From assembly GCA_013202715.1 (NCBI GenBank), contig JABMRF010000053.1, positions 1-56,940 on the forward strand: DNA of 56,940 nucleotides, read 5' to 3'. Position numbers and translations under genes: made by a program. This DNA is from Candidatus Kuenenbacteria bacterium (GTDB taxonomy: Bacteria > Patescibacteriota > Patescibacteriia > UBA11705 > JABHMO01). The notes under the pieces are model-generated. The model was not told the origin of the DNA and did no database searches. It worked only from the letters and a program-made list of their open reading frames with translations. This document shows positions 2,212 to 10,391 of this stretch, one piece after another; the stretch's first letter is position 1; every line of letters starts with the position of its first letter.

Positions 2212-5200
2212 ATGAGTTTAGAAAGTTTAAAAATAAATGATTTTGACGCAATTCGCTTAAAGCTTGCTTCACAAGAGGACATTCGATCTTGGTCCTACGG
2301 AGAAGTGATGCGTCCAGAAACAATTAACTATCGAACCCAGAAACCAGAAAAAGACGGGCTTTTCTGCGAAAAGATTTTTGGTCCAAGCAAGGACTGGGAA
2401 TGTTATTGTGGAAAATATAAAAAAATTCGTTATAAGGGGATTGTTTGTGATAAATGTGGTGTGGAAGTTACCAGAGCAGTTGTCAGACGACAGAGAATGG
2501 GCCACATTAATTTAGCCGTTCCAGTATCTCATATTTGGTTTTTGCGTGGCGTTCCTTCGAAAGTAGGTTTAATTTTAGATTTATCAATTCAAAAACTGGA
2601 AAAAGTTATCTACTTTGCAAATTTTATTGTCACGGATGTTGATGAGGACCTCAAGAAACAGGAAGTTGAGAATCTAAAGAAAGAGTATGTATCCAAGCAA
2701 AAGGCAATCAGCTCACAATCTGCTCAGAAGATGAACATGATCAAGGAAAATAAAGAAATGGCTGGAGCGGAAATGAAAAAGGCCCTTTTGGAAGCCGACA
2801 AAGAAAAAACTGAGATGATCGAAGAGCTTGATGAAGATTATTCAGTCACAGAAAAAGAACTTAAAGAATTAAAACCACTAAAAATCATTTCAGAAATTGA
2901 TTATCAAGACATGTCACTCAAATATGGTCATGTTTTTGAAGCTGGAATCGGAGCGGAGGCCATTCGTAAACTTTTAGAAAGAGTTGATATTACCAAATTG
3001 ATTAATGAACTAAATGAAGAATTGAAAACTGACAAGGGCGCACGCAGAAAGAAGTTAATCAATCGAGTCAAATTATTAAAGAGTTTAAAAAGAAATAAAA
3101 TCAAATCTGAACAGATGATTTTAACCGCTTTGCCGGTTATTCCTCCGGACCTTCGTCCGATGGTTCCGCTCGATGGTGGCCGTTATGCTACTTCAGATTT
3201 AAATGATTTATATCGCCGAGTGATTTCAAGAAATAACCGTTTGAGACGTTTGCTTGAGTTAAATGCGCCAGAAGTTATTATCAGAAATGAAAAAAGAATG
3301 TTGCAAGAAGCGTGTGATGCTTTGATTGATAATTCTGCTCGACAAAGCAAAACTACCACAGCTTCTACCGGGCAAAAAAGAAAATTAAAATCCATTGCTG
3401 ATTATCTAAAAGGAAAAAGAGGAAGATTTCGTCAGAATTTGCTTGGTAAGAGAATTGACTATTCCGGTCGAAGTGTAATTGTGATAGGTCCTGACCTGCG
3501 TTTGCATCAGTGTGGTATCCCAAAGAAAATGGCCTTGGAATTGTTCAAACCATTTGTAATCAGCCAATTGATCAAAAAAGAATACGTTCATAATATTCGT
3601 AGCGCGAATCGGTTTATTGAAGCTGATCGTCCTGAGGTCTGGGATATTTTGGAAAAGATTGTCAAAGAGGCGCACGTTCTTCTAAATCGTGCCCCTACCC
3701 TGCATAGACTTGGTATTCAGGCTTTTCAACCGGTTTTGATCGAAGGAAAAGCGATTCAATTGCATCCTTTGGTTTGTTCAGCTTTCAACGCTGACTTCGA
3801 CGGTGACCAAATGGCGGTACATCTGCCTTTGACTGAGGAAGCAAAGACAGAAGCTAAAGAAAAAATGCTGGCCAGTAAGAATTTGCTAAAACCGGCAACC
3901 GGAAATTCTATTGTAACACCGACCATGGATATGGTTTGGGGTTCATATTATGTTACATCACAGATGGATCGCAAAGATCCTGTAAAGATATTTGCATCAG
4001 TAAAAGAAGCAAAAATTGCCTATGATCTTCGGAAAATAAACTTGAGGCAGGTGATCAAAGTAAAAGTAAACAAAGGCGAATTGGCCAGTAAGATAAAAGA
4101 GAATATTTTCGAAACTTCATTGGGCAGAATTTTATTTAACAATTTACTTCCTTCGAAAATGCCGTATTTCGATGAATTGATTGACAAGAAAAAAATGGCT
4201 TACATTGTTCAGCTTTGTTTAGAGTTTTACGGATTTGAAAAAACTGCAATTGTGCTGGATAATATCAAGGATTTTGGATTTAAGCAGCTAACAAAAACCG
4301 GCTTTTCATGGGGCATGGGAGATTTACCTGACGTTGAAGGAAAACAAGCTCAAATTGAAAAGGGAATGAAAGAAGTGGATGAAGTTCAAAGTCAATATGA
4401 AGAAGGATTGTTAACAAATGATGAAAGATATAGCAAAGTTATTGAAGTTTGGACCAGAATAAAAGATGAAGTTACCAAAATGAGTCAGAACGTGCTTGCA
4501 GAGGGTGGCTCAGTCCATACCATGATTAATTCAGGTGCCCGTGGATCATGGGGCCAGCTGGCTCAGATGCTTGGAATGAAAGGATTGGTAACAAATCCAG
4601 CCGGACAAATTATTGAATTGCCGGTAAAAGCAAGTTTCAAAGAAGGATTCTCGGTTTTGGAATATTATATTTCAACTCATGGTACTCGAAAGGGTTTATC
4701 TGATACCGCGCTTCGTACCGCTAACGCTGGTTATTTAACAAGACGTTTGGTTGACGTGGCCCAGGACATTGTTATTAAACAAGATGATTGTAAAATTGAT
4801 AAAGGACGAGTAATTACAAAAAAAGAAAGTGATGAAATGGGCTTGAAATTGGTGGAGCGCATCGTCGGGCGATATTTAGTTGAGGCAATCAAAAGTGAAA
4901 AAACCGGTAAAGTGGTGGTAAAGGCAGGTGAGCTGATTACGGAAGAAATTGCCAGAAAACTGGAAAAAGTTGAATTTAATTCTGTCCATATTCGTTCACT
5001 ATTAAATTGTAAGTTAATCAAAGGGGCCTGCAAAAAATGTTATGGTTATGATTTGGCTTACAATCAACCGGTTGAAATGGGGACCGCAGTTGGAATTATT
5101 GCGGCACAGAGTATTGGTGAGCCTGGAACTCAGTTGACTATGAGAACTTTTCATACTGGTGGTGTAGCCGGCGGTGATGATATTACACAGGGTCTTCCTC

Positions 5201-6128: not shown

Positions 6129-8027
6129 ATGGCCAAATCAAGTTTATTAAAAAACTTAATTATTTTCATTGTCGTATTTTTGTTTATTGGCAGTATTTTT
6201 AGTCTATATAATGTCTCTGAAAAACAAGAAGAGCAAATAAATATCCAGAAAATGATTGAGCAGATTGAACAGGAAAAAGTACAGAAAATCGAAATTGAAG
6301 GAAGTATTTTGCATTTGACTTTAAATGACGACACCAAGCAGAAATTGAAAAAAGAAAATTCTGAATCTTTATCAGAATTGTTGAATAATTTTAATGTTGA
6401 TCAACAAAAAATAAAAAAGATCGCTATTGAAGTCAAAGAAGAGAGCGGGTTCAGTTATTGGATGACAAATTTGCTACCATTTTTGATCCCGTTTTTATTT
6501 ATCGCTATCTTTATTTGGTATATGTTACGGCAGGTTCAGGGTGCAAACACAAAGGCGATGGGATTTGGTCAGAGCAAAGCCAGGCAAGTAAAACCTGACG
6601 GAAAAGATAAAACTACTTTTAAAAATGTTGCTGGTGTAAAAGAGGCGAAGGAAGAACTGGAAGAAATTGTTGAGTTTCTTAAGTTCCCTAAAAAGTTTAC
6701 TTCACTTGGCGCGAAAATTCCAAAGGGCGTACTATTAATGGGCGCACCGGGAACAGGAAAAACATTATTGGCAAAAGCGGTTGCCGGTGAGGCAAATGTT
6801 CCATTCTTCACAATTTCAGGTTCTGAATTTGTGGAAATGTTTGTTGGTGTTGGTGCTTCTCGTGTTCGTGATTTATTTAAAAAAGCGAAAAAGCAAGCTC
6901 CCTGCATTATATTTATTGATGAAATAGATGCCGTTGGAAGGCAAAGAGGCGCTGGACTTGGTGGTTCACACGACGAGCGTGAACAAACTCTCAACCAAAT
7001 TTTGGTTGAAATGGACGGTTTTGATCCTCATGCAAATGTGATTGTGATGGCAGCTACGAATCGACCTGATGTGTTAGATCCAGCATTGCTCCGACCTGGT
7101 CGATTTGATAGGCGCGTAATTCTTGAATTACCGGACATCAATGATCGAGAGTCTATTCTAAAAGTCCACTCAAAGCAAAAACCACTTGTAAAAGAAATAA
7201 ATCTGAGGCAGATTGCTGAGCGAACTCCTGGGTTCTCCGGAGCTGACCTCGCGAACCTTTTTAATGAAGCTGCAATCTTGACTGCGCGAAGAGACAAGAA
7301 AAAAGTTTCTCAGGCGGAATTGATTGAAAGTATTGAAAAGGTAATGCTTGGGCCTGAGCGAAAGAGCCATATTCTTTCCAAAGAAGAAAAGAAGATTACT
7401 GCGGTTCACGAAGCTGGACACGCGCTTGTTTCTCATATCCTTCCTCACTCAGATCCGGTTCACAAGGTTTCTATCATTTCAAGAGGACGAGCTGCTGGCT
7501 ATACCATGAACTTGCCGGAAACTGACAAGTACATGCATGCGAAATCAGAATATATTGATGATCTGGCTGTTTTATTAGCGGGACATACTGCGGAAAAGCT
7601 GGAATTTGGTGAAGTTACCACTGGCGCTTCCAATGATCTTAATCGCGCTACTCAATTGGCTCGTAGTCTGATTACTCAGTACGGTATGAGTGACAACCTG
7701 GCTCCACGCGTTTATGGCAAAAAAGAGGAAATGGTTTTTCTTGGTCGTGATCTCCACGAACAACGTAACTATTCCGAGAAAGTAGCGGAAGAAATTGACA
7801 CGGAGATTGATTCTATGATTAGAGCAGCTGCAAAGACTGCGGAAAAAGTTATTAACGAGAATAATGATAAGATGGACAAGATAGTTAAAAAACTTCTTAA
7901 AGATGAGACGGTTGAGAAGGATGAGTTTCTTGAACTTATGGGCGTGAAGGTTGAGAAAGTGGAAGAGGTTGAGGAAAAAAAAGAGGAGAAAGAGGGTGAA
8001 GTGAAAAAGGAAGTTAAAGAAGATTAA
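6129..8027 (+). CDS. ftsH: ATP-dependent zinc metalloprotease FtsH
   Basis: Two N-terminal TM segments, Walker A GAPGTGKT, Walker [14 protein letters not shown] zinc motif. Confidence 0.98.
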
Positions 8028-8097
8028 AGTAATAGAGAGAATCTACTTAATATAGATGTCATTGCGAGGCGCCCGCGAAGCAGGGAGCCGAAGCAAT

Positions 8098-8132
8098 AAA
8101 AACAAGCGGCTGTGAGTCGCTTGTTTTGTTTT
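8098..8132 (+). terminator. Probable intrinsic terminator of rpoBC-ftsH
   Basis: AAAACAAGCGGC-tgtga-GTCGCTTGTTTT hairpin followed by T tract. Confidence 0.6.
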
Positions 8133-8143
8133 CTGAGATTTCC

Positions 8144-8179
8144 ACGGTCAGGCGAGCCTTCGAAGGCTCGCCTGACCGT
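8144..8179. repeat. Perfect 36-bp palindrome, REP-like (GTCAGGCG...CGCCTGAC family)
   Basis: ACGGTCAGGCGAGCCTTC|GAAGGCTCGCCTGACCGT; related copy at 10631-10662. Confidence 0.8.
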
Positions 8180-8183
8180 ACTA

Positions 8184-8212
8184 TTGACAATTTGAAGTAT
8201 TTCCCTTAAACT
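8184..8212 (+). promoter_or_regulatory. Sigma70-type promoter upstream of the stem-loop array
   Basis: TTGACA-17 nt-TAAACT; predicted start ~8219, just before unit 1. Confidence 0.7.
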
Positions 8213-8219
8213 TTAAAGA

Positions 8220-8486
8220 AGGGATAAAAGGAGTTGGAATTTATTTTTAACGACAGTCCAATTGTTTAATCCCTGAAATTGAATGGTTCCTTACAATCAG
8301 ACGAAAGCAGCAATGTTCAAATTGAACGAGTGAGGTTCTGTCTGATTATTGAAAGTAAGATCAAAATGAACGATGAGCAGACTGTTTCCAAGAAACGATT
8401 TCTCTCTTGTTCATTAAGTAATAAATTATAAAAAAAAATGGACGAAGAACTTGATGTTTTTAGAAACGATGCTCTCGCTGTCCATT
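8220..8486 (+). ncRNA. Array of four stem-loop units, each with two 9-nt variable segments in ACGA-N9-TGT frames (TIGR/bridge-RNA-like guide array candidate)
   Basis: Units 8220-8274, 8295-8347, 8365-8415, 8437-8486; 7 exact ACGA-N9-TGT motifs plus one degenerate AGGA-N9-TAT; outer stems pair in each unit. Confidence 0.7.
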
Positions 8487-8489
8487 GCC

Positions 8490-8522
8490 CAAAAACCTGT
8501 CGCCACTCCGCGGCAGTTTTTT
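8490..8522 (+). terminator. Possible terminator after the array
   Basis: AAAAACCTGTCGC...GCGGCAGTTTTTT. Confidence 0.45.
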
Positions 8523-8530
8523 ATACTTTG

Positions 8531-8668
8531 AAAGAGGGCTCCATAGTTGCGAAGCACTGTGGATCCCAGTAGGGGGAGCTTCTTAATTACTGCAATTTTT
8601 CAATGTCCCCTAACAGGGCTCCACAGCTCTTCTCCGTTTCACTCTGAAGAGACTATGGAGCCCCCTTT
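8531..8668. ncRNA. Rod-shaped structured RNA candidate, 6S RNA-like
   Basis: Closing stem 8531-8546/8653-8668, central bubble with small CTCTTC/GAAGAG hairpin, inner stems CTGTGGA/TCCACAG and TAGGGG/CCCCTA. Confidence 0.45.
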
Positions 8669-8810
8669 TTATAGATTGACAAACCCTCCAACTTAAACTA
8701 AGATAATAGCAATGTAAATTGTTCATGTATCGAGATTTTGGAAATATTAATACTTTAATAAATACATGAACATTGAGCAAAGCCGAAATGTCCTTTTTGG
8801 GAGGTCCATA

Positions 8811-9134
8811 ATGCAAATAAAAACGGAACCGATCATTTGGCGCCTGGAAAATCTTGATGAATGGGGAAAGGAAGATTTCTGGTGGAAGAATTTGTTGAGT
8901 TCATTCAAGCGACGGTTCAAAGTCTATGTGCCTGAGATGGTTGGTCGCCTCAGACATCGGATGCTGATGGAAGACAAACTCGACGAACGAGGATTTTTCC
9001 TTTGCATTGTCAAAGTTTTTTCACGTGACGCAGTTCTCAAACCAGCTTTGATTGAAGAGTTTATTGTTCTTTTACTTTCGGACAACGATCCGTTTTTTAA
9101 AAAAGTAAATAAAATTATAAAAGAAGAACTGTAA
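8811..9134 (+). CDS. Hypothetical protein (107 aa)
   Basis: GGAGG SD before ATG 8811, TTGACA-17-TAAGAT promoter at ~8676, hairpin terminator after stop. Confidence 0.7.
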   Translation: MQIKTEPIIWRLENLDEWGKEDFWWKNLLSSFKRRFKVYVPEMVGRLRHRMLMEDKLDERGFFLCIVKVFSRDAVLKPALIEEFIVLLLSDNDPFFKKVNKIIKEEL

Positions 9135-9380
9135 TAGCCCAAATACGTAGCCCTAATCAAATTGGGGCTTTTTTTTTGTAAAATGTGCATGTTGATAAAT
9201 GATTGTGCAATATTTTTTATATTTTGTAAAAATGTGCTATAATATAATCACAAATGTAAAATGCAAAGTGCAAAACCACATACTAAAATTGAAATTTCAA
9301 AATTAAATTTTAGCTAGTATTAATTTTTATTTTGGATTTTGATTGTGGTTTTACATTTTAATTTTTGCATTTCCAAAAAT

Positions 9381-10391
9381 ATGGTTCCATTCTATCGTTT
9401 AATTTTAAAAAGAGCTCTATCAATCAGCTGGAAAAATAAGTGGCTGTGGGTTTTAGCGTTCTTTGCCGCCTTTATTGGTAATGGCGGAGTATATGAAGCG
9501 CTTCTGCGCGGATTTAATAATATCTCAGAAGGCCGTTCAGTTTTTTACGCGCTTAGTGAGTATACCCAGTCGGGTATTTTAGGCATGTTTTCCTGGAGTA
9601 ATATTTCTGCACTTTGGTATAGCGATCCTGCTGCGCTTGGCATGAATGTCTTTGCTATGCTTTTGATTTTGTGTCTTTTAGCAGTTTTAATAAGTCTCGG
9701 AGTTATTGGTCAGGGCGGTGTGATTCGTGGCGTAATTAGCCGAGATGAAAAAAAGAAAACTAATTTTAAAGAAAATTTTCATGCCGGACTGGAACGGTTT
9801 TGGCAGATTCTGGAATTAAATGTAATTACCAAGGTTGTCTTGCTTGGAATTTTAATGTTCCTGGCTTACCTAGCTTCACTGATAACTTTCCAAAGCGCTG
9901 TGTTGAATATATTTGTCTATGTTTTAGCGTTTATCATATTTATAATTTTAGGAATAATAATTTACTTCCTGACAATATACGGTACCGCCTTTGTTGTTCT
10001 CCGAAAAAAGGGTCCATTCTCCGGACTAAAAGCGGCCTGGCATTTATTCTCTAAAAATGTATTACTGAATTTGGAAATGGGCTTTCTGCTATTCATAATC
10101 AACATCATTGTTGCAATTCTGTTTCTTGTGGCAACATTCATTTTGCTTTCTCCATTCATGCTTTTGTACTTCATTTTTTTAATGTCCGCAGCCAATATTG
10201 CTGCTGCCATTATAATGGTTATCATGAGCATCATATTTATTATCTTTATGGTTTTGATTGGATCATGGTGGAGTACTTTTCAGCTTGGCGCTTGGGCAAT
10301 CTTATTTGAAGAACTGGCACTTTTGGGCGGAAAATCAAAAGTTCAGAGATTGTATGAACATGTGGCGAAAAAAACAAAGACAAAGAAATAA
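9381..10391 (+). CDS. Multi-pass membrane protein (CPR-common, GDPD membrane-domain-like)
   Basis: ~7 hydrophobic segments; ATG at 9381 preferred over upstream TTG inside a repeat. Confidence 0.75.
   Translation: MVPFYRLILKRALSISWKNKWLWVLAFFAAFIGNGGVYEALLRGFNNISEGRSVFYALSEYTQSGILGMFSWSNISALWYSDPAALGMNVFAMLLILCLLAVLISLGVIGQGGVIRGVISRDEKKKTNFKENFHAGLERFWQILELNVITKVVLLGILMFLAYLASLITFQSAVLNIFVYVLAFIIFIILGIIIYFLTIYGTAFVVLRKKGPFSGLKAAWHLFSKNVLLNLEMGFLLFIINIIVAILFLVATFILLSPFMLLYFIFLMSAANIAAAIIMVIMSIIFIIFMVLIGSWWSTFQLGAWAILFEELALLGGKSKVQRLYEHVAKKTKTKK

Follow-up and report, generated by a model that had tools for sequence, protein, structure and literature searches.

A putative stem-loop TIGR array of dual-spacer guides in a Candidatus Kuenenbacteria genome with no tas gene in its assembly

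A contig of Candidatus Kuenenbacteria (GCA_013202715.1, contig JABMRF010000053.1, hereafter C52) carries at positions 8221-8486 a row of four hairpins, each displaying two variable segments between fixed boxes, which raises the question of what kind of RNA element this is and which protein would use it. The whole stretch analysed, 56,940 nt, is called the window. Reading of the sequence together with a parsing script distinguished three clean units (U2-U4) and a degenerate one (U1). Units are built in the order outer stem, ACGA, 9 nt, TGT, short inner stem-loop, ACGA, 9 nt, TGT, outer stem, and their starts are spaced by 74, 70 and 72 nt. The locus comprises the following features.

8184..8212, + strand: sigma-70-type promoter TTGACA-17-TAAACT (promoter scan, 10/12 matches)
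8221..8273, + strand: U1, degenerate; stem GGGATAAA, AGGA, GTTGGAATT, TAT, TTTTA, ACGA, CAGTCCAAT, TGT, stem TTAATCCC; first box pair AGGA..TAT, loop of 5 nt only, outer stem paired at 7/8 positions
8295..8347, + strand: U2; stem AATCAG/CTGATT; spacer A AAGCAGCAA; inner stem-loop TCAAATTGA; spacer B GTGAGGTTC
8365..8415, + strand: U3; stem AATGA/TCATT; spacer A TGAGCAGAC; inner stem-loop TTCCAAGAA; spacer B TTTCTCTCT
8437..8486, + strand: U4; stem AATGG/CCATT; spacer A AGAACTTGA; loop TTTTAGAA; spacer B TGCTCTCGC
8497..8523, + strand: intrinsic-terminator-like hairpin (8497-8516; 7 pairs, 5 of them G-C), then the T run TTTTTTAT

The ACGA-N9-TGT boxes of U2, U3 and U4 are perfect. All eight spacers of the array measure 9 nt, and CGA/TG boxes occupy seven of the eight positions. 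The two spacers of U1 are partly complementary, with in-register A:B pairs at 7 of 9 positions. An earlier, sequence-only reading of this locus had described four units at a 70-75 nt period, a degenerate first box in U1, a promoter in front and a terminator-like hairpin behind. The units are present where it claimed them, the AGGA..TAT box is seen in the sequence, the spacers it gave for U2-U4 are identical to those parsed here, and a motif scan recovered both the promoter and the terminator-like hairpin. Further palindromic repeats adjoin the array at 8055-8100, 8138-8184 and 8530-8672.

Examination of the window revealed nine occurrences of ACGA-N9-TGT, seven of them inside 8250-8481. The number of single boxes is not unusual for the window, as shuffled sequences contain 4.69 on average and 6 of 100 shuffles reach 9. 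The array region folds better than 100 of 100 shuffles (z = -3.08), and the signal of the array is the clustering and pairing of its boxes, not their window-wide count. That count, within the range of the shuffles, and the palindromes right beside the array are what a reading without guides could call upon, in which the hairpins would represent palindromes of the REP type, attenuators, terminators or else some unrelated structured sRNA, with boxes due to chance. We regard such an explanation as very unlikely: screening of 7000-10000 against Rfam, with E up to 10, returned nothing near any gathering score, and the evidence from the whole genome argues against it.

In the whole 1.30-Mb genome, the double-box pattern gave 13 matches, against none for the pattern read backwards. 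A scan using TIGRFinder-derived criteria that we re-implemented (CGA/TG boxes, spacer of 8-10 nt, gap up to 17, stem of at least 5) detected 14 units, all within three arrays (C52, n = 4; C7, n = 6; C24, n = 4), and a single match when the boxes were reversed. Parsing of tandem units allowed us to count 4 in the window, about 9 on contig C7 and at least 6 on contig C24. Seventeen clean units were retained genome-wide, in which box C is CGA at 33 of 34 sites and box D is TG at 33 of 34. Their 34 spacers are 9 nt each and all distinct, with a minimum Hamming distance of 3. Pairing is found in 79.7% of the stem cells compared with 57.8% in shuffles, and 8 of 9 outer-stem pairs changed on both sides. 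The covariation score of the stems is 0.673 versus 0.234 in shuffled alignments (0/500 shuffles reach 0.673; slid controls, 0.11-0.25). Stems that covary while boxes stay fixed, and 34 of 34 spacers of exactly 9 nt that are all different, are hard to reconcile with chance boxes, as is the co-occurrence of this format with tas across the phylum, documented below. The claims that the outer stems vary yet still pair, and that the inserts are all 9 nt and all different, extend in this way from the window to the genome.

A TTGACA-N17-TAnnnT layout precedes all three arrays as well as a fourth, cut sub-array, and occurs at 308 sites genome-wide. The promoters of the C7 and C24 arrays were read from the sequence and from our own pattern count; the promoter scan did not list them because their -10 hexamers match TATAAT at only 3 of 6 places.

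This architecture corresponds to a motif set that has been published. Spacers of 9 nt between a CGA box C and a TG box D, within variable palindromic stems, are described for stem-loop TIGR arrays (Xu et al. 2026, preprint, 10.64898/2026.09.09.750476), and the associated TIGRFinder is described there as accepting CCA, CGA, CTA or CAA as box C and TG or CG as box D, with 9-nt spacers, gaps no longer than 15 and stems no shorter than 5. The element shares with these arrays two 9-nt spacers per unit, box C on the 5' and box D on the 3' side, palindromic variable flanks and tandem repetition. The TIGR feature absent from the assembly is a Tas (Nop-domain) protein, either beside the array or elsewhere in the 60 contigs, and for that reason we class the RNA element with the TIGR arrays without calling the locus a complete TIGR-Tas system. 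Judged from its sequence, the assignment of the element to the stem-loop TIGR arrays of dual-spacer guides, of the TIGR-Tas kind already described, is supported. The core call of the sequence-only reading, TIGR-like dual 9-nt guides in stem-loops, fits the published definition, and the same format flanks NF052498 tas genes in relatives. Its proposal of the CGA box as a new variant does not stand, as CGA/TG is already among the eight box combinations searched by TIGRFinder. The array is ordinary in build, and its one odd point is that the effector protein was not found in the assembly. By itself it adds little to the thousands of stem-loop TIGR arrays, CGA/TG included, that are catalogued around tas genes.

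Two other families of guide RNAs were also considered. CRISPR arrays alternate identical direct repeats with spacers of about 30 nt, and box C/D guides carry RUGAUGA and CUGA boxes that form k-turns and have fibrillarin and Nop5 as partners. A CRISPR array was rejected: the units have only boxes of 3-4 nt in common, and their mean column identity of 54% is carried by those boxes. A box C/D guide sRNA was rejected as well, its boxes here being CGA/UG and the only Rfam C/D match, snoU30 on the minus strand at 8204-8277 (E 7.6, 18.2 bits), being far below the gathering score of 45. Beyond that match, a similar geometry could recommend a bridge RNA of the IS110 type or a methylation guide of the box C/D type: the guide segments, two in number, sit in internal loops and next to motifs that resemble boxes. 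However, the genome contains no IS110 recombinase, no Nop and no fibrillarin, the sequence holds no RUGAUGA/CUGA k-turn boxes, and the units form a tandem array rather than a single RNA at a transposon end, so that we give either identity almost no credence.

The link to the Tas family is provided by relatives, here 20 other array-bearing Patescibacteria genomes, which are related and hence not independent. Genomes were called array-bearing with at least two matches close together or at least three in all, a rule set after the tables were seen; G351, G309, G618 and G700 are represented by pattern matches only, with unparsed stems. A tas gene (NCBIfam NF052498, TIGR-Tas endonuclease) is clear in 18 of these 20 genomes, weak in one and not found in one, the two without a clear tas being the most fragmented of the 20 (130 and 150 contigs). 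It usually lies between two sub-arrays. Proteins flanked by ACGA-N9-TGT units in relatives score 111.1, 112.4 and 126.3 bits against NF052498 TIGR_Tas_endo, for a curated cut-off of 100, and the Tas proteins of relatives show IGIRHR at the N-terminus (the G068 protein starts MGRIIGIRHR). A profile of 12 Tas proteins matched PDB entry 9mty_A at E 1.7e-24. Within 4 kb on either side of 80 tas loci from species-representative genomes, we found 291 CGA/TG stem-loop units, 290 of which are on the tas strand, compared with 0 for reversed boxes at the same loci; at least two units are present at 54 of the 80. The search for ACGA-N9-TGT pairs that the sequence-only reading had called for, in this genome and its relatives, has thus given two more arrays (C7 and C24) and the same format in relatives.

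The corresponding protein was searched for in the 60 contigs of the assembly, which is rated 99.99% complete. NF052498 and Pfam Nop had no match up to E 10 in these contigs, PF01548 and NF033542 had none, PF02371 had two matches of 7-8 bits only, and no fibrillarin was found. Using tblastn and profiles of 3 and 12 Tas proteins on the six frames of all contigs, the best E values were 0.95, 1.2 and 0.57, and hhalign of the 12-protein profile with 163 of 854 own ORFs, of at least 180 aa, gave a best probability of 0.5%. The genes neighbouring the arrays encode FtsH, DUF7544, a methyltransferase, a class-V aminotransferase, FtsW, a MurD-like protein, a lipoprotein, a secreted protein and a receiver-domain protein; by Pfam, PDB sequence search and translation these are housekeeping or envelope proteins only. 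No Nop or IS110 gene had been noticed adjacent to the array, and none is present there or anywhere in the 60 contigs; the proteome search proposed for such proteins accordingly returned no Nop, tas or IS110. The idea of an effector of new protein type is unsupported, as no gene is common to the array neighbourhoods of this genome and of relatives. That an unrelated effector of unrecognised type, encoded in this genome, binds the units is unlikely, the one point in its favour being that no Tas is recognisable. Units next to NF052498 genes in relatives have exactly the boxes, spacer length and closing pairs seen here, and this speaks for one and the same binding protein. None of the ORFs around the three arrays has homologues in the array neighbourhoods of relatives.

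Where a tas gene might be is suggested by contig C24, and we lean towards its lying in an assembly gap beyond the end of that contig, where a further sub-array starts. C24 is a 4.3-kb contig whose array runs off the contig end inside a strain-variable island; in its last bases a terminator is followed by a new promoter (TTGACA-17-TAAGGT) and by the beginning of a further unit. Beyond tRNA-Trp it has no DNA match in four congeners, and contigs of other runs break there. Two exact-match scans of metagenome contigs for an extension of C24 gave no match. Among the public contigs of four DNA runs one spans C24, and because it continues only 428 nt past it, we infer the position of tas rather than observe it. 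Against a gap speak the searches of a 99.99%-complete assembly that yielded no tas-like sequence, and the placement of the C52 and C7 arrays among housekeeping genes of long contigs, away from any tas. The layout of relatives, with tas between sub-arrays, and the cut sub-array at the end of C24 make this the likeliest location.

A less probable, though still plausible, explanation is that the genome is truly without tas and its arrays are orphans, either recent relics or guides loaded in trans by the Tas of a phage, a plasmid or another cell. No search of the 99.99%-complete assembly recovered tas, and every array comes with a promoter motif and a terminator of its own, away from candidate effectors. 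With CGA and TG each conserved at 33 of 34 sites, boxes and stems are intact, so that any relic would be young. Use at a distance also occurs. In G020 (10 contigs), which has a single tas, true units occur on the tas contig at a distance of 60 kb as well as on another contig. In G351 pattern clusters lie 13 kb and 232 kb from its tas. A caveat is that an array assembled on a different contig from tas may really be its close neighbour. A mirror case is reported, namely Tas proteins without arrays (Xu et al. 2026), and if the absence of tas is real, the present genome would be the first guide-only case, mirroring that array-less Tas branch. Against true orphans stand the clear tas genes of 18 of the 20 other array genomes, the other two being highly fragmented, and the array that runs off a contig end in a variable island, a type of region often lost from a 60-contig metagenome bin. 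The word orphan, used by the sequence-only reading, is therefore apt for this assembly, with no tas in 60 contigs, but does not carry beyond it. An effector acting in trans, as also proposed there, is plausible, on the example of the G020 units. In the available portions of their text, Faure 2025 (PMC12045711) and Xu et al. (2026) do not use the word orphan, and a literature search on orphan TIGR arrays brought up a single, unrelated paper; their supplementary tables, or TIGRSafari, may list distal arrays or this genome. More doubtful still is that the three promoter-driven arrays are stand-alone guide genes in a genome truly lacking tas, which would stay intact either through being loaded by a Tas from outside, brought by an infecting phage, a plasmid or a partner cell, or through serving as decoys for the Tas of an invader.

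Orphan CRISPR arrays likewise consist of guides with no effector gene adjacent and are sometimes served in trans by a distant cas locus. They have another RNA architecture and another protein family, and are likened to the present arrays by analogy only. Arrays in this clade are not confined to the neighbourhood of tas, those of G020 and G351 being tens to hundreds of kb from a single tas, subject to the caveat above on separate contigs, and the guides of tas-distant arrays must act in trans within the cell.

A working model can be proposed for the locus. Positions 8184-8523 would form a self-contained transcription unit with three intact units and one decayed, each of which would yield, as its precursor, a guide RNA with two spacers (tigRNA). 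A conserved A-U pair closes the outer helix of every unit, with box C (CGA) on the 5' side and box D (UG) on the 3' side. A second box D/box C pair is closed by an inner helix of 2-4 bp, and the 9-nt spacers lie between the box pairs. On the model of stem-loop systems that have been characterised, the transcript, of about 300 nt, would be cut in its A/U-rich linkers into units of about 50-60 nt, and a Tas dimer would bind the two box C/D pairs of a unit. Spacers A and B would then each base-pair with one of two neighbouring 9-bp segments, on opposite strands, so that the DNA target spans 18 bp. An effector of the Patescibacteria TasR clade is expected, and the predicted outcome is DNA binding and transcriptional repression rather than cleavage, because the RuvC-like domain of that clade has Arg at its first catalytic position.

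Among characterised systems, CsTasR from Candidatus Staskawiczbacteria, a member of the Patescibacteria/CPR TasR clade, is described as having R8 and V126 at the first two catalytic positions, binding an 18-bp target and repressing transcription (Xu et al. 2026). The array described here has covarying variable palindromic outer stems and an inner hairpin, as reported for CsTasR; small arrays on the tas strand are a trait of that clade and of the relatives studied here, whose Tas proteins also have Arg at the first RuvC position. CsTasR guides are reported with 10-nt spacers, of which 9 nt pair, against 9-nt spacers here (Xu et al. 2026). Unlike the CsTasR system, the Kuenenbacteria genome has no tas in its assembly, and its arrays number three, apart from one another and each behind a promoter motif; two occupy intergenic regions among housekeeping genes. 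Nor is the CUU motif evident that Xu et al. (2026) report at the base of processed stems: inspection by eye showed it in just 3 left flanks of the 17 clean units.

The Peromyscus gut PlTasA (Faure 2025, PMC12045711; Guan 2026, preprint) is likewise described with stem-loop units whose two spacers form 9-bp heteroduplexes, with sub-arrays separated by intergenic stretches and with processing in linkers; its effector differs in being a nuclease-less TasA whose gene adjoins the array. The dual-repeat TIGR arrays of TaTasR and SpTasH, as presented by Faure 2025 (PMC12045711), have in common with the present one box C/D anchors, 9-nt tandem spacers and an 18-bp two-strand target. They differ by conserved edge and loop repeats (CCA/UG), 36-nt tigRNAs, active nucleases and Tas-dependent processing; here conserved repeats are absent and only stems occur. 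IS110/IS621 bridge RNAs also have two guide loops, and the Tas family of relatives is distantly related to their recombinases (IS621 recombinase 8wt6, E 8.5e-4 with the 12-protein profile; NF033542, 35-41 bits for array-flanked proteins). The bridge RNA is, in contrast, one RNA per element, with target and donor guides for recombination, and this genome has no such recombinase.

Seventeen clean guides in a small, near-complete genome allow a clean test of self-targeting. The 17 units were taken in two arrangements, the 9-mers being joined so as to pair with opposite strands of adjoining contiguous segments, and compared with both strands of the whole genome. We found 0 matches with at most one mismatch, 5 with exactly two and 47 with exactly three. 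A control of 68 mismatched A/B pairings gave 1, 15 and 157, that is, about 4 per 17 units at up to two mismatches (16 in all) and about 39 at three. For contiguous 18-mers with up to three mismatches there are consequently no self-targets above chance, and the 18-mer self-search advocated by the sequence-only reading came out at the level of the mismatched pairings. By our own estimate, exact 18-mers are expected by chance in phage and viral collections, given their size.

The C52 and C7 arrays lie between housekeeping genes on long contigs, with tas not nearby, and no syntenic arrays were found in four congeners. Each of these two arrays has its own promoter motif. Like the distant arrays of G020 and G351, they would be missed by pipelines that scan only around tas, and if the guide-only reading is true, tas-anchored array finders would overlook part of TIGR biology. 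The stretch between ftsH and the DUF7544 gene is a variable spot, ranging from about 320 to 2140 bp among the four congeners compared, with contents that differ between genomes.

The element in the window occupies a stretch (8184-8523) lying between the ftsH terminator and a small repeated element, and further arrays of the same kind were found on C7 and C24, two other contigs of the genome.

Features around the array in the window (contig C52), and arrays detected across the genome
6129-8027: ftsH open reading frame, with Peptidase_M41 and AAA domains
8099-8127: ftsH terminator, from the terminator scan
8184-8212: promoter motif TTGACA-17-TAAACT, start of the array stretch
C52:8220-8486: array in the window, from a TIGRFinder-like script
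8497-8523: G+C-rich hairpin and T run, end of the array stretch
C7:25892-26490, minus strand: array, from the same script
C24:3777-4101: array, from the same script

Four hairpin units (U1 to U4) stand between the promoter motif and the terminator hairpin, with start-to-start spacings of 74, 70 and 72 nt. Each is built as an outer stem of 5-8 bp, ACGA, 9 nt, TGT, 5-9 nt, ACGA, 9 nt, TGT and the complementary outer stem. Boxes and stems are perfect in U2 to U4; in U1 the first box pair is degenerate (AGGA..TAT), the loop is short and the two 9-mers are partly complementary to each other. The sequence-only reading had described this stem, box and 9-nt layout together with the promoter motif and terminator hairpin, all of which were recovered, and its spacers are identical to those parsed here. 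The observation of a stem-loop dual-spacer array is confirmed.

A single ACGA-N9-TGT box is not rare: the window contains nine, its shuffled versions average 4.69, and a count of nine was reached in 6 of 100 shuffles. Seven of the nine, however, fall within 232 bases. A scan of the 1.30-Mb genome for the doubled box, as the same reading had suggested, returned 13 matches against none with the pattern reversed. The TIGRFinder-like script found 14 units, confined to the three arrays listed, as compared with one match for reversed boxes and 0-2 for other published box pairs. Covariation was tested on an alignment of the 17 clean units of the genome, with shuffled and slid controls. The outer stem and the short inner loop-closing stem were 79.7% paired versus 57.8% in shuffles, and the covariation score was 0.673 versus 0.234, a value reached by none of 500 shuffles (slid controls, 0.11-0.25). 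The first base of ACGA and the final base of TGT form a closing pair that is invariant in all 17 units, and where GCGA is the second box, as in three units, the inner pair is T-G instead of T-A. CGA and TG are therefore the actual boxes. All 34 spacers of these units are 9 nt long, no two are alike, and their G+C content is 48% (genome, 38.8%). One unit of the window (8295-8347) and one of C7 (12140-12195 of stretch L014) have a common outer stem (AATCAG with C/TTGATT) and unrelated spacers, a likeness in sequence which hints that units may be copied with spacer replacement. On C24 (3962-4273 of stretch L015), a low-depth contig from one other sequencing run has a different final base in one spacer and differs also in one loop and in linkers, suggesting strain-level variation inside that array.

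Stem-loop TIGR arrays are reported by Faure et al. 2025 (PMC12045711) to be processed to single stem-loop units. In the Methods of Xu et al. 2026 (10.64898/2026.09.09.750476), the stem-loop motif sets of TIGRFinder comprise CCA, CGA, CTA and CAA for box C and TG or CG for box D, with 14-nt intervals (9-nt spacer), pairs at most 15 bp apart and stems of at least 5 bp. As both CGA and TG are listed, their combination is a published one, and the 'variant CGA box' of the sequence-only reading is not novel. The window's element is a real TIGR array of the stem-loop type, well formed and in the published CGA/TG format.

The doubled box is present in 5 of 60 relatives and, this genome included, in 39 of 401 genomes sampled from the class and 43 of 401 sampled from the phylum; genomes with single matches are as frequent as in the reversed control. 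In three relatives (G022, G010 and G020) the arrays adjoin a protein of 441-546 amino acids scoring 111-126 bits on NCBIfam NF052498, 'TIGR-Tas system RNA-guided endonuclease' (cut-off 100). A profile of 12 such Tas proteins matches PDB 9mty_A (E 1.7e-24) and the IS621 bridge-RNA recombinase (E 8.5e-4). When genomes were called array-bearing on at least two doubled-box matches close together or at least three in total, a rule set after the tables were seen, a clear tas gene was found in 18 of the 20 others. The exceptions are G049 (150 contigs), with a tas match of 18.7 bits only, and G331 (130 contigs), with none; three genomes with merely scattered or control matches had no tas either. A scan of species-representative genomes yielded 121 loci encoding this Tas family, nearly all from genomes labelled as Parcubacteria, as Patescibacteria or as a named candidate phylum within that radiation. 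Within 4 kb on either side of tas at the 80 loci kept, 291 CGA/TG stem-loop units were counted (reversed boxes, 0), of which 290 lie on the tas strand and 238 have the A...T closing pair; 54 loci have at least two units. The units of the window thus have the guide format that is standard in this Tas clade. CTA/TG was the best box pair at 8 of the 80 loci, and 18 had fewer than two units of any tested pair. Two genomes of the same order, G013 and G025, have tas matches of 92.6 and 125.3 bits (pieces summed) without the exact ACGA-N9-TGT double box; their arrays are probably built with different boxes or different spacer lengths. In the phylum sample, G587 has eight reversed-control matches, against 0-2 in all other genomes of the three samples, and may carry arrays of another type, in which the motifs are mirrored.

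The assembly itself (60 contigs, 99.99% complete, 3.19% contamination) gave no match to NF052498 or Pfam Nop at E up to 10, nor to DEDD_Tnp_IS110, NCBIfam IS110 or fibrillarin; Transposase_20 gave two matches of 7-8 bits. Searching the 60 contigs with three Tas proteins by tblastn gave nothing significant (best E 0.95), and the 3-protein and 12-protein Tas profiles, run with filters off on every six-frame segment of at least 30 amino acids, found no Tas (best E 1.2 and 0.57). The earlier statement that no Nop, RuvC, HNH or IS110 gene is adjacent is correct and extends to the whole assembly. Neighbours of the arrays encode FtsH, DUF7544, a methyltransferase, a class-V aminotransferase, FtsW and a MurD-like protein and, for C24, a secreted 395-aa protein, a lipoprotein and a receiver-domain protein. 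No homologue of any of these was found next to the arrays of relatives, which leaves the suggested new effector type unsupported.

These negative searches favour a genome truly without tas, a reading we nevertheless hold to be rather unlikely, given that the C24 locus continues past the contig end and that tas in relatives typically lies between sub-arrays. After the C24 array terminator (4132-4161), the last 52 bases of the contig carry a new TTGACA-17-TAAGGT motif followed by the opening of one more unit (..GCACGAG); the array locus therefore runs past the break. In eight relatives (G022, G073, G093, G125, G135, G225, G309 and G326) tas lies between two sub-arrays, as judged from positions. 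C24 is 4.3 kb long and, outside tRNA-Trp (863-937 of L015) and an adjoining tRNA-like 75-nt stretch (863-1007 together), has no DNA match in four congeners. Public contigs of three of four runs break repeatedly along C24, and contigs of other runs vary there, so that it behaves as a strain-variable island that assembles and bins badly. The C24 array is carried by this apparent tRNA-adjacent island, past 863-1007. G049 and G331 are moreover the most fragmented of the 20 array-bearing genomes. On all these grounds, we are inclined to place tas in unassembled sequence, although the single contig spanning C24 extends just 428 nt further and two exact-match scans of the metagenome collection gave no longer copy. 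The absence of tas from the assembly, together with promoter-driven arrays among housekeeping genes, is of mild interest.

Two arrays of this genome are located between core genes, and each is preceded by a TTGACA-N17-TAnnnT motif of its own. The motif occurs 308 times in the genome, with one copy just upstream of every array; a consensus promoter scan lists only that of the window, not those of the C7 and C24 arrays. Neither arrays nor tas occur in the four congeners, whose spacer between ftsH and DUF7544 is a variable site; this lineage has therefore acquired the arrays. Distal units also occur in G020 (10 contigs), whose one tas lies at C2:61.7-63.0 kb and whose parsed units with 7-9-bp stems lie at C2:123.5 kb and mid-contig on C9, while G351 has doubled-box clusters 13 kb and 232 kb from its own tas. 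Xu et al. 2026, scanning 'surrounding tas loci', place arrays upstream, downstream, flanking or inside tas, a description in which distant or tas-less arrays do not figure.

According to Xu et al. 2026, a large, mostly CPR clade of TasR has expanded, inactive RuvC domains, the first two catalytic positions of CsTasR being R8 and V126. IGIRHR is found near the N-terminus of all Tas proteins of relatives here, with its Arg at residue 8 in the G068 protein, from which we infer that they belong to this clade. CsTasR pairs 9 nt per spacer to define an 18-bp target, and CsTasR and a TasA gave guide-dependent, reversible repression of a reporter and a chromosomal gene in E. coli (Xu et al. 2026). For stem-loop TasA, Guan et al. 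2026 describe DNA unwound across one continuous region, with the 9-bp heteroduplexes of the two spacers on opposite strands. Beyond the observed sequence features of the array, each step from transcription onward is therefore proposed by analogy with these findings. A primary transcript of ~300 nt would start from the promoter at 8184 and be cut in the A/U-rich linkers, possibly by a host-encoded RNase (cf. the Discussion of Xu et al. 2026). Each unit of ~50-60 nt would be loaded on a TasR dimer via both box C/D pairs, and loaded TasR would bind an 18-bp site, leading to repression. Spacers A and B of each of the 17 units were joined in both orders and searched against the whole genome under a contiguous 18-bp rule, following the 18-mer search proposed earlier. 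There were no matches at 0-1 mismatch, 5 at two and 47 at three, the same rate as for 68 mismatched A/B pairings (16 at up to two mismatches, 157 at three); there is thus no sign of self-regulation under this rule. Short TIGR spacers are noted by Xu et al. 2026 to give many false matches.

Several other elements surround the array. The interval from the ftsH stop to the array promoter contains two palindromic hairpins, 8055-8100 and 8138-8184; the latter has a perfect 16-bp stem (-34 kcal/mol), and the former is present again on C18 and matches contigs C6 and C1 of congener G003 at 86% identity. At the ftsH-DUF7544 gap of congener G004 (L056), the place of the array is taken by a gene for a Cys-rich repeat protein (C..GC.K....G..GYC..HGR), and a 375-aa protein with the same repeat type is encoded at L036:12516-13643, adjoining the G022 TIGR-Tas locus. 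The open reading frame 8766-9134 (122 aa, no Pfam match) resembles one in the same gap of G004, with motif WRL.NLDEW....WW, and is therefore a small conserved gene with no tie to the array. Directly after the array, 8530-8672 is a 143-nt element with a strong fold (MFE -61 kcal/mol), a T run and the inverted ends GGGCTCCATAG / CTATGGAGCCC. Segments from its ends are found again on C46, C45, C17, C59 and C33, and C59:28055-28199 appears to be a whole copy. The element seems to represent a small repeat family, MITE-like or structured intergenic.
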